Below, piece by piece: positions 12,035 through 54,718 of a stretch of DNA of 64,000 bases. A program made the translations under genes and the position numbers. The notes beneath the pieces were generated by a model. That model worked only from the letters and a program-made list of their open reading frames with translations, was not told the origin of the DNA and did not search any database. This DNA is from Escherichia coli (GTDB lineage: Bacteria > Pseudomonadota > Gammaproteobacteria > Enterobacterales > Enterobacteriaceae): NCBI RefSeq assembly GCF_030013595.1, contig NZ_CP122768.1; one strand, 5' to 3'. Numbering within the stretch: position 1 is the first letter of the stretch; every line of letters begins with the position of its first letter.

Positions 12035-12146
12035 CCCCGGCTAGACCGGGGTGCGCGAATACTGCGCCAACACCAGGGAAATCTTGGCTGCGCCGTAAAT
12101 TATTATGATGAGTTACAAGGGCACAGCACTGTTTTTCAGGCCGCAC
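12026..12146 (-). ncRNA. arcZ: ArcZ small RNA (RyhA/SraH), convergent with arcB and overlapping its stop codon
   Basis: Minus-strand sequence from 12146 reads GTGCGGCCTGAAAAACAG…GGTGTTGGCGCAGTATTCGCGCACCCCGGTCTAGCCGGGGTCATTTTTT, matching the ArcZ sequence as I recall it, including the seed region and intrinsic terminator. Confidence 0.85.
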
Positions 12147-33616: not shown

Positions 33617-33735
33617 AATCTCGCGCTAACAACCTGGAATCGAGCCGTCATACTACGGCGCAACGCCCTATAAAGTAAACGATGACCCTTCGGGAACTTC
33701 AGGGTAAAATGACTATCAAAATGTGAATTGTAGCT

Positions 33736-33769
33736 GACCTGGGACCTGTACCCGGGTCGGTATTTTTTT
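33736..33769 (+). terminator. Intrinsic terminator in the greA leader (GraL-type attenuator)
   Basis: 8-bp stem GACCTGGG/CCCGGGTC (one U-G pair) followed by T7, about 95 bp upstream of greA; the greA leader is known to produce terminated GraL RNAs. Confidence 0.55.
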
Positions 33770-40420: not shown

Positions 40421-40507
40421 GCCGAGGTGGTGGAATTGGTAGACACGCTACCTTGAGGTGGTAGTGCCCAATAGGGCTTACGGGTTCAAGTCCCGTCCTC
40501 GGTACCA
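40421..40507 (+). tRNA. leuU: tRNA-Leu (anticodon GAG)
   Basis: 87-nt sequence GCCGAGGTGGTGGAATTGGTAGACACGCTACCTTGAGGTGGTAG…GTCCTCGGTACCA with class-II long variable arm and encoded CCA. Confidence 0.95.
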
Positions 40508-44289: not shown

Positions 44290-44366
<77 letters not shown>

Positions 44367-44487
44367 CTTTCCCTTAGAGTCCTTTTTCAAATATACTGTG
44401 AAGACTTCGGCCTTCGTAGTGGGATTTGAAAAAATCCTTCTGGAAAGTGCTCCAGACCGCAGTTGCGGTTATAGGGTTCAGTTATAT

Positions 44488-44513
44488 AAAGCCCCGATTT
44501 ATCGGGGTTTTTT
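44488..44513 (+). terminator. Intrinsic terminator/attenuator between metY and rimP
   Basis: AAAGCCCCGATTTATCGGGGTTTTTT; a second weaker hairpin plus T-run follows at 44535-44557. Confidence 0.7.
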
Positions 44514-44572
44514 GTTATCTGACTACAGAATAACTGGGCTTTAGGCCCTTTTTTTATGTCTTGGGGGTGGGC

Positions 44573-49252: not shown

Positions 49253-49326
49253 ATGCGGGATAAGGCGTTTACGCCGCATCCGGCATGGATTGCCTGATGC
49301 GACGCTGGCGCGTCTTATCAGGCCAA
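49253..49326. repeat. Pair of REP elements (BIME) between infB and rbfA
   Basis: GCGGGATAAGGCGTTTACGCCGCATCCGGCA and GCCTGATGCGACGCTGGCGCGTCTTATCAGGCC fit the enterobacterial REP palindromic unit. Confidence 0.8.
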
Positions 49327-50798: not shown

Positions 50799-51164
<366 letters not shown>

Positions 51165-51180
51165 TTCTTGCGAGTTTCAG

Positions 51181-51209
51181 AAAAGGGGGCCTGAGTGGCC
51201 CCTTTTTTC
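51181..51209 (+). terminator. rpsO intrinsic terminator
   Basis: GGGGGCC-TGAGT-GGCCCC hairpin followed by TTTTTT. Confidence 0.8.
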
Positions 51210-51410
51210 AAGCTGACGGCAGCAATTCACTGGAAACTAATGTATTGTTGCTATGAATGATCTTCCGTTGCAGAGGTTCGCGCGGCTAATGAGAGGCTTT
51301 ACCCACATTGGGCTGGGTTAGGGTTGTCATTAGTCGCGAGGATGCGCAGAAGATCGGGTATTAACACCAGTGCCGTAAGGTACTGTCTAAGAAAGAGAAA
51401 GGATATTACA

Positions 51411-53546
51411 TTGCTTAATCCGATCGTTCGTAAATTCCAGTACGGCCAACACACCGTGACTCTGGAAACCGGCATGATGGCTCGTCAGGCTACTGCCGCT
51501 GTTATGGTTAGCATGGATGACACCGCGGTATTCGTTACCGTTGTTGGCCAGAAAAAAGCCAAACCAGGTCAGGACTTCTTCCCACTGACCGTTAACTATC
51601 AGGAGCGTACCTACGCTGCTGGTCGTATCCCGGGTAGCTTCTTCCGTCGTGAAGGCCGCCCAAGCGAAGGCGAAACCCTGATCGCGCGTCTGATTGACCG
51701 CCCGATTCGCCCGCTGTTCCCGGAAGGCTTCGTCAACGAAGTTCAGGTTATCGCCACCGTGGTTTCTGTTAACCCGCAGGTTAACCCGGATATCGTCGCG
51801 ATGATTGGTGCTTCCGCAGCACTGTCTCTGTCTGGTATTCCGTTCAATGGTCCGATTGGTGCTGCCCGCGTAGGTTACATCAATGACCAGTATGTACTGA
51901 ACCCGACTCAGGACGAGCTGAAAGAGAGCAAACTGGATCTGGTTGTTGCGGGTACTGAAGCCGCTGTACTGATGGTTGAATCTGAAGCTGAACTGCTGAG
52001 CGAAGACCAGATGCTGGGCGCAGTAGTGTTCGGTCATGAACAACAGCAGGTTGTTATTCAGAACATCAATGAACTGGTGAAAGAAGCCGGTAAACCGCGT
52101 TGGGACTGGCAGCCGGAGCCGGTAAACGAAGCGCTGAACGCGCGCGTTGCTGCACTGGCTGAAGCTCGTCTGAGCGATGCTTACCGCATCACCGACAAAC
52201 AAGACCGTTATGCGCAGGTTGATGTCATCAAATCTGAAACCATCGCGACGCTGCTTGCTGAAGATGAAACCCTGGACGAAAACGAACTGGGTGAAATTCT
52301 GCACGCTATCGAGAAAAACGTTGTTCGTAGCCGCGTACTGGCAGGCGAACCGCGTATCGACGGTCGTGAAAAAGATATGATTCGTGGTCTGGATGTGCGT
52401 ACTGGCGTGCTGCCGCGTACTCACGGTTCTGCGCTGTTCACCCGTGGTGAAACGCAGGCACTGGTTACTGCAACGCTGGGTACCGCTCGTGACGCACAGG
52501 TTCTTGATGAACTGATGGGCGAACGTACCGACACCTTCCTGTTCCACTACAACTTCCCTCCGTACTCCGTAGGCGAAACCGGCATGGTCGGTTCTCCGAA
52601 ACGTCGTGAAATTGGCCACGGTCGTCTGGCGAAGCGCGGCGTGCTGGCAGTCATGCCGGATATGGACAAATTCCCGTACACCGTACGTGTGGTGTCTGAA
52701 ATCACCGAATCCAACGGTTCCTCTTCTATGGCTTCCGTGTGCGGCGCGTCTCTGGCGCTGATGGACGCAGGTGTGCCAATCAAAGCTGCCGTTGCGGGTA
52801 TCGCAATGGGTCTGGTGAAAGAAGGCGACAACTACGTTGTACTGTCTGACATTTTGGGCGACGAAGATCACCTGGGCGATATGGACTTCAAAGTTGCAGG
52901 TTCCCGCGACGGTATCTCTGCACTGCAGATGGATATCAAAATTGAAGGTATCACCAAAGAGATCATGCAGGTTGCGCTGAACCAGGCTAAAGGTGCGCGT
53001 CTGCATATCCTGGGCGTAATGGAACAGGCGATCAACGCGCCGCGTGGCGATATCTCTGAGTTCGCACCGCGTATCCATACCATCAAGATCAACCCGGACA
53101 AGATCAAAGACGTTATCGGTAAAGGCGGTTCTGTTATCCGTGCTCTGACCGAAGAAACTGGCACCACCATCGAAATCGAAGATGACGGTACTGTGAAAAT
53201 CGCAGCGACCGACGGCGAGAAAGCGAAACATGCTATTCGTCGTATCGAAGAGATCACTGCAGAAATCGAAGTGGGCCGCGTCTACAATGGTAAAGTGACC
53301 CGTATCGTTGACTTTGGCGCATTTGTTGCCATCGGCGGCGGTAAAGAAGGTCTGGTACACATCTCTCAGATCGCTGACAAACGCGTTGAGAAAGTGACCG
53401 ATTACCTGCAGATGGGTCAGGAAGTACCGGTGAAAGTTCTGGAAGTTGATCGCCAGGGCCGTATCCGTCTGAGCATTAAAGAAGCGACTGAGCAGTCTCA
53501 ACCTGCTGCAGCACCGGAAGCTCCGGCTGCTGAACAGGGCGAGTAA
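51411..53546 (+). CDS. pnp: Polynucleotide phosphorylase
   Basis: Canonical 711-aa protein starts at TTG 51411 ([16 protein letters not shown]); the track extends 29 codons upstream to an ATG; two RNase PH domains, KH and S1. Confidence 0.95.
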
Positions 53547-54539: not shown

Positions 54540-54718
54540 CTGACGTACACATCAGCCCGTAATCTTTTTTGATTGCCATCACCTTAACGGGTGAGGGCGT
54601 TGTTGTTCGTTAATACACCTACTTTGAGCCGGTTCACACTTTTCAATGAAAATTGCTGATCAATTTCATGATGAGTTATGTAGACTGGCCGCCATTAATT
54701 TTGAGGCACACGTACTAC

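Follow-up and report, generated by a model that had tools for sequence, protein, structure and literature searches.

The rpsO-pnp control region of an Escherichia coli chromosome and its cis-antisense RNA SraG

The rpsO-pnp locus

The window analysed here is a stretch of 64,000 nucleotides from an Escherichia coli chromosome (NCBI RefSeq contig NZ_CP122768.1), in which the gene of ribosomal protein S15 (rpsO) is followed on the same strand by the gene of PNPase (pnp). According to the list of open reading frames and the comparison with E. coli K-12, the intergenic region between the two genes spans exactly positions 51165-51410, and the features in and around it are collected in Table 1. This region is among the best-studied post-transcriptional control regions of E. 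coli, and the small RNA SraG that belongs to it was discovered in 2001, with a functional characterisation following in 2016. Both the region and SraG are already known, and their identification in the window is correct but ordinary.

In an alignment with K-12 MG1655 that covers positions 51140-51440 there are no indels and only two substitutions, T at 51309 and G at 51311, both A in K-12, which correspond to nucleotides 88 and 86 of SraG; in the pnp leader hairpin, both positions belong to the apical loop. The flanks at 51140-51180 and 51397-51440 are identical to K-12. As indels are absent and the substitutions are confined to the apical loop, the promoter, the +1 and the terminator that have been mapped in K-12 are base for base the same in the window. 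The window allele at 51309/51311 is common to many complete E. coli genomes at 100% identity, and of 5426 complete E. coli genomes, 5425 contain a 381-nt query across the interval, many of them with 100% identity. The PNPase of the window differs from that of K-12 in three amino acids (residues 194, 265 and 626). Outside the interval, yet part of the control of the same operon, the autoregulatory S15 leader precedes rpsO.

For the comparison beyond E. coli, one genome per species was scanned with a degenerate pattern from pnp codons 8-17, which resulted in 120 loci; 96 distinct Enterobacterales intergenic regions, 201-398 nt in length, were obtained from these. As the pattern lies outside the intergenic region, the loci were not selected on intergenic sequence.

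Table 1. Features of the rpsO-pnp locus, given in positions of the window
Feature	Position	Strand	Basis
S15 (rpsO) autoregulatory mRNA leader	50837..50951	+	Rfam RF00114, 117.6 bits (gathering 39.5), full model
rpsO CDS (ribosomal protein S15, 89 aa)	50895..51164	+	ORF; protein identical to K-12 b3165
Conserved block GAGTTTCAG, directly upstream of T1	51172..51180	+	Column identity 0.7-0.99 in 96 loci
Bidirectional Rho-independent terminator (T1 for rpsO, T for SraG)	51180..51209	both	Folds, scan, conservation
SraG primary transcript, 216 nt	51181..51396	-	K-12 b4449 mapped without indels; cRT-PCR in PMC5029454
Older SraG annotation, 174 nt (SraG-S, Argaman 2001)	51181..51354	-	Rfam match covers 51352..51181
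P2 promoter of pnp, with -10 region (TAATGT/TATTGT) and probable transcription start	51237..51256	+	Conserved block, 0.6-0.9 identity
pnp leader hairpin R, RNase III substrate of PNPase autoregulation	51259..51355	+	Fold and covariation; function from PMC5029454
Upstream GGA motif in 3' arm of hairpin R, candidate CsrA site	51340..51342	+	Motif search; pairs with 51277-51279
pnp Shine-Dalgarno (SD) AAGGA, with second GGA at 51401-51403	51399..51403	+	Sequence; 0.7-0.9 conserved in 96 loci
PSraG -10 hexamer TAATAT	51403..51408	-	-12 to -7 relative to 51396; identical to K-12
pnp CDS (PNPase, 711 aa), TTG start	51411..53546	+	Frame and start as K-12 b3164

The terminator T1 and the rpsO 3' region

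The initial annotation had placed the rpsO terminator in this region, and it is found there as a GGGGCC/GGCCCC stem at 51186-51202 with the loop TGAGT and the run TTTTTT at 51203-51208. With its A/U extensions, T1 folds on the plus strand with 12 pairs and -19.9 kcal/mol, and on the minus strand with 11 pairs and -15.7 kcal/mol. In the minus-strand reading, GGGGCC-ACUCA-GGCCCC is followed by CUUUU, with the U-tract at 51185-51181, and this is a usable Rho-independent terminator for SraG. A consensus terminator scan listed T1 on the minus strand only, and the plus-strand stem with its six T was found by folding and a stem search; the plus-strand T1 has what the scan is stated to look for, and the scan may merge overlapping sites of the two strands. 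In K-12, T1 and the SraG terminator have been described as one bidirectional terminator, to which the major 3' ends of SraG map (PMC5029454).

The T1 stem is present in 95 of the 96 Enterobacterales loci, with about six T downstream, and an upstream A-run of at least four A in 8 nt accompanies it in 78 of these 95; the window reads AGAAAAG-stem-TTTTTT. Eighteen loci have T1 about 65 nt further from the rpsO stop codon, at an offset of 71-88 nt as compared to about 20 nt elsewhere, with an extra segment between rpsO and the terminator. RNase E has been found to cleave upstream of T1 (PMC5029454), and the conserved block that directly precedes the terminator probably is the RNase E site at which the decay of the rpsO mRNA starts.

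The pnp leader

The structured pnp leader that the initial annotation had also described is formed by hairpin R, an interrupted helix of 37 bp with five G.U pairs and a folding energy of -47.6 kcal/mol. The whole intergenic region folds with -99.7 kcal/mol (z = -4.7), and none of 200 dinucleotide shuffles was as stable. A sensitive Rfam scan for a sense-strand pnp-leader family found none, and returned only a chance-level MH_s15 match on the terminator.

A simple promoter scan with a threshold of 9/12 found neither the pnp promoter P2 nor the SraG promoter PSraG. As both are weak-consensus promoters, they were placed from the identity to K-12 and from published numbers. An in-vitro pnp RNA that comprises +1 to +234 ends at nucleotide 79 of the open reading frame (PMC5029454), which puts the +1 of P2 at 51256. 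RNase III cuts the P2 transcript at +39 and +77 (PMC5029454), and this spacing of 38 nt, together with the geometry of a 2-nt 3' overhang on the predicted helix, puts the +1 at 51253. The P2 start thus most likely lies at 51253-51256, and the RNase III cuts would fall near 51291-51295 and 51329-51333, with an uncertainty of about 4 nt.

Park et al. 2015, as referred to in PMC5029454, found that CsrA binds the leader at two sites after its processing, one of them over the SD. The two GGA motifs of the window fit this two-site account. The upstream motif, which is paired in hairpin R, would be the upstream CsrA site and would become single-stranded only once RNase III and PNPase have removed the 5' arm.

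The start of pnp at a TTG, already given in the initial annotation, agrees with the K-12 annotation (pnp CDS 3309033-3311168, 711 codons), and initiation at the UUG has been mapped by toeprinting (PMC5029454). The TTG of the window is at 51411-51413, with the AAGGA upstream; an in-frame TTG at 51324 in the mechanical ORF list was rejected as pnp start. AAGGA and TTG are conserved across the Enterobacterales loci with a complete intergenic region, except for a GTG in two Providencia loci; a further Providencia locus has TTG.

The antisense RNA SraG

In an Rfam scan of the whole window at the gathering threshold, SraG (RF00082) is matched on the minus strand at 51352..51181 over the full length of the model (1-177 of 177), with 162.2 bits at a gathering score of 50 (E 1.5e-29). 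The antisense RNA that had been expected here from earlier reports in E. coli is thus recognised at three times the gathering score. As the plus strand scores only 20 bits with this model, the minus-strand call is unambiguous. RefSeq annotates sraG of K-12 (b4449) as an ncRNA of 216 nt at 3311183-3311398, between pnp and rpsO, and the window copy at the homologous position is identical in 214 of 216 nucleotides, with differences at nucleotides 86 and 88. It folds with a minimum free energy of -62.3 kcal/mol (z = -3.5).

The initial annotation had held that the ends of SraG cannot be placed from the sequence alone. By way of K-12 they can now be given: the 5' end is the T at 51396 (51354 in the older annotation) and the 3' end is 51181, so that the entire RNA lies within 51165-51410, antisense to rpsO-pnp and convergent with rpsO. 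In K-12, SraG has been detected in Northern blots and the ends of the 216-nt primary transcript have been mapped by circular RT-PCR (Fontaine et al. 2016, PMC5029454), with the true start 42 nt upstream of that of the 174-nt form of 2001 (PMC5029454). The Rfam match stops 44 nt short of the 5' end at 51396. The Rfam model represents the superseded 174-nt ends, and automated annotation therefore misses the 5' 42-44 nt, which are the regulatory part.

The -10 hexamer of PSraG sits in the spacer between the SD and the TTG of pnp and matches the consensus in 4 of 6 positions. The -35 region is poor (ACGAAC/TACGAA at 51426-51432, at most 2 of 6 positions) and lies inside pnp codons 5-8; the promoter of SraG thus straddles the right edge of the interval and extends into pnp. 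Mutation of the -10 abolishes the 216-nt SraG in K-12 (PMC5029454), and the identity to K-12 suggests that SraG is transcribed in the strain analysed here as well.

That the minus-strand transcript encodes a small protein is hardly credible. There is an ATG-initiated open reading frame of 58 aa at 51475..51299 on the minus strand, opposite the start region of pnp, and within SraG there are an AUG frame of 14 codons and a GUG frame of 22 codons. The 58-aa frame was rejected, as it begins upstream of the SraG +1 and is not on the 216-nt RNA, and the internal frames are very short. In addition, one of the two substitutions between K-12 and the window falls inside the frames, in the apical loop, which is variable; the region belongs to the least conserved ones, and translation has not been reported.

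Conservation and the strand under selection

In the 96 loci, both hairpin arms and the P2 block are nearly invariant, and the least conserved stretch of the intergenic region is 51345-51398, where the 5' part of SraG is encoded; the portion required for repression corresponds to 51347-51396. In 96 of 97 sequences the fold of the sense strand is more stable than that of the antisense strand, with a mean difference of 28 kcal/mol and on average 13.0 G.U pairs in the sense fold as compared to 3.8 in the antisense fold. Pairs were counted directly on a MAFFT alignment, as the hairpin columns are mostly invariant. On the plus strand, 92.9% of the cells of the hairpin pairs are canonical, versus 81.3% on the minus strand, with 444 G.U versus 51 A.C cells, and as the 96 loci are phylogenetically related, these counts are not independent events, but their direction is uniform. 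Covariation or compensatory changes are found at five pairs (51270/51345, 51265/51349, 51295/51324, 51298/51321 and 51302/51317), and the G.U pairs 51278/51341 and 51285/51334, which would be C.A mismatches on the other strand, are kept in at least 90 of the 96 sequences. It is clearly the sense strand, and not SraG, on which the structure is under selection.

These data bear on a reading in which SraG is transcribed but is a by-product of the sense strand: the A/T-rich spacer between SD and start codon would mimic a -10, the symmetric terminator would stop the resulting RNA, and the conserved features would serve the sense strand, with little of SraG under selection. The strand bias of fold and pairing favours such a reading, and so does the weak conservation of the SraG 5' part, but the complementarity of an antisense RNA to its target is automatic, so that weak conservation of this part is no argument against a function in cis.

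The distribution of the SraG-model match can be taken to favour the by-product reading as well. Full-length antisense matches with 83-162 bits are found in all 20 genera tested, with 120-140 bits in Klebsiella, Enterobacter, Pantoea and Erwinia genomes, and they include genera without a homologous -10-like hexamer. At the homologous minus-strand site, such a hexamer is patchy among the genera: it is absent there from Klebsiella oxytoca, Raoultella, Enterobacter cloacae, Pantoea and Erwinia. Against the by-product reading, many genera have a better minus-strand promoter match than E. coli at the same place, namely AATAAT and TTTACG at a distance of 18 nt (9/12) in Photorhabdus, Xenorhabdus, Arsenophonus, Buttiauxella, Superficieibacter and some Citrobacter; in Yersinia, Brenneria and Pectobacterium, the match is AATAAT and CTTACG (8/12). 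In all, and with the K-12 experiments on pnp expression considered below, it is unlikely that SraG is a mere by-product.

What the SraG model recognises is largely a mirror of the pnp leader and T1, and its match does not prove a transcript independently. As it is mostly the conserved sense leader and the terminator that the model re-reads, the covariance-model match is weak evidence for an antisense transcript, and the real evidence for SraG is the published K-12 work with Northern blots, circular RT-PCR and promoter mutants (PMC5029454). In general, where a cis-antisense RNA overlaps a structured mRNA leader, a covariance-model match alone is no demonstration that this RNA exists, as the model re-reads a conserved sense element. 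It is conceivable, though somewhat doubtful, that beyond Escherichia and the lineages with a -10-like hexamer in the SD-TTG spacer, Rfam SraG is mostly a mirror annotation of the pnp leader and the rpsO terminator. In that case, genomes like those of Klebsiella, Enterobacter, Pantoea and Erwinia would make no homologous antisense RNA, or they would make another one from a different start.

One possible alternative start is a match at about +34 of pnp. In Enterobacter, Pantoea, Erwinia, Tatumella, Kosakonia and others that have no PSraG-like -10, the best minus-strand match is CATAYT and TTTCCA at 18 nt (8/12), which lies in pnp codons 10-20 and is the reverse complement of Q-Y-G and L-E-T codons. 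It is a consensus match only; a start from there would give an antisense RNA that covers the pnp start codon. A consensus promoter search in 51600-51900 of the window found none.

Some of the loci differ in the length of the spacer. Three intergenic regions of about 350 nt and one of 398 nt, all of Enterobacteriaceae, are 100-150 nt longer than the usual 240-250 nt, and in the longest one a T1-like terminator was not found in the first 110 nt. Insertions are possible in these four; an IS element has been described in the rpsO-pnp spacer of Yersinia pestis (PMC5029454). One locus titled Martelella alba, an alphaproteobacterial genus name, has an enterobacterial region with a TTG start, a GGGGCC terminator and a spacer of 239 nt, which suggests a mislabelled or contaminated assembly.

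Regulation of pnp by SraG

The identities, coordinates, folds, strand bias and conservation described above stem from the present analysis. Published K-12 experiments are the source for transcription, the ends of the RNA, cleavage by RNase III, the toeprint and the 1.3-fold effect of mutating the promoter, and the exact P2 start, the exact RNase III positions and the assignment of the CsrA sites are inferred. In K-12, overexpression of SraG lowers the pnp mRNA and PNPase, and a mutant of the SraG promoter has 1.3-fold more pnp mRNA and protein (PMC5029454). Full-length SraG abolishes the 30S toeprint in vitro and the 174-nt form does not; likewise, this SraG-S does not repress pnp, and the 5' 42-44 nt are essential for the repression (PMC5029454). 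In the duplex of SraG and pnp, new RNase III sites are gained (PMC5029454). The promoter-mutant effect and the loss of the toeprint speak against SraG being a by-product, as does an older autoregulation-defective mutation that maps in the SraG -10 (PMC5029454). SraG is poorly expressed (PMC5029454). Its effects are small, 1.3- to 2-fold (PMC5029454), which, like the lack of trans targets, is more in line with a by-product.

It is very unlikely that SraG is mainly a trans-acting, Hfq-associated sRNA with unlinked targets, for which the overlap with pnp would be secondary. SraG binds Hfq with sub-nanomolar affinity in vitro and had earlier been co-immunoprecipitated with Hfq (PMC5029454), and in Yersinia pseudotuberculosis the operon YPK_1206-1205 is regulated by SraG, according to work cited in PMC5029454. 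However, an hfq deletion in E. coli altered neither the SraG level nor the effect of SraG on pnp-lacZ, no other E. coli target emerged from microarrays, RNAup predictions or Northern blots of ten candidates, and the target genes in Yersinia are without homologues in other genera (all PMC5029454).

There can thus be very little doubt that the locus is the E. coli rpsO-pnp control region with the cis-antisense small RNA SraG, and as every mapped element is base-identical to K-12, the same mechanism can be expected in the window. In this mechanism, rpsO transcripts would either end at T1 or read through into pnp, and P2, directly downstream of T1, would provide a second start of the pnp mRNA. The long hairpin in the pnp 5' UTR would be cut by RNase III on both arms, whereupon PNPase would strip the short 5' strand that is still paired to the message. 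The mRNA exposed in this way would be open to CsrA at the two GGA sites, one of them over the SD, and to RNase E, and would lose translation from the weak UUG, and this is how PNPase autoregulates its synthesis. On the opposite strand, the weak antisense promoter (-10 TAATAT, 51408..51403) would fire at 51396 and give rise to the 216-nt RNA that ends at T1 in reverse, at 51181. Some 141-144 nt of the P2 pnp leader are fully complementary to this RNA, whose 5' end lies 3 nt short of the SD AAGGA, and by its pairing it would both block 30S loading and create new RNase III sites in the duplex, with a modest extra repression of PNPase as the likely outcome.

Relation to known systems

The SraG of the window has the same position and orientation as that of E. 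coli K-12 (b4449, RF00082), with identical -10, +1 and terminator and a full model match, and differs from it only by the two substitutions in the apical loop of the shared hairpin. Also the pnp leader is not substantively different from the one whose autoregulation has been described in E. coli (Portier, Regnier, Jarrige, Carzaniga; CsrA layer by Park et al. 2015), with the same hairpin, P2, SD, UUG and GGA motifs; the cleavage and start coordinates have been transferred from the numbers in PMC5029454.

GadY on gadX-gadW and SymR on symE are likewise chromosomal cis-antisense RNAs that form duplexes with the target mRNA which RNase III cuts. They are encoded opposite the UTR of their target, fully complementary to it and independent of Hfq in their action, and in the case of GadY, RNase III takes part in the processing of the paired mRNA (PMC5029454). 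SraG differs from these in that the 5' UTR which it overlaps is already a substrate of RNase III by its intramolecular pairing, in that one bidirectional terminator serves both SraG and the upstream gene, and in that its effect is only a modest fine-tuning. Further antisense RNAs at rpsO-pnpA or opposite pnpA are RliD of Listeria monocytogenes and ref41 of Enterococcus faecalis, as cited in PMC5029454, where they are said to have no notable sequence similarity to SraG.

Other RNA elements in the window

The rpsO-pnp genes belong to a longer operon whose beginning is also in the window. A tRNA-Met (CAT) at 44290-44366 (+) and the rimP leader at 44455-44555 (+; Rfam RF01770, 102 bits) mark the beginning of the metY-rimP-nusA-infB operon, which continues into rbfA-truB-rpsO-pnp, and just upstream of the rbfA open reading frame there is a nucleoid-associated noncoding RNA 4 (naRNA4) element at 49254-49324 (+; Rfam RF02564, 77 bits), which is also found in the E. 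albertii locus. A tRNA-Leu (GAG) is at 40421-40507.

Further elements are an ArcZ sRNA, matched in full length at 12039-12146 (-; Rfam RF00081, 121 bits), and the enterobacterial greA leader at 33647-33768 (+; Rfam RF01769, 126 bits), which has a terminator-like hairpin with a U-run at its end. Downstream of pnp, the Hfq-binding RNA STnc490 of Rfam is matched in full length at 56691-56814 (+; 146 bits), just downstream of a 651-aa, deaD-sized open reading frame (54653-56608) and overlapping the start of a mechanically listed frame of 169 aa (56773-57282).
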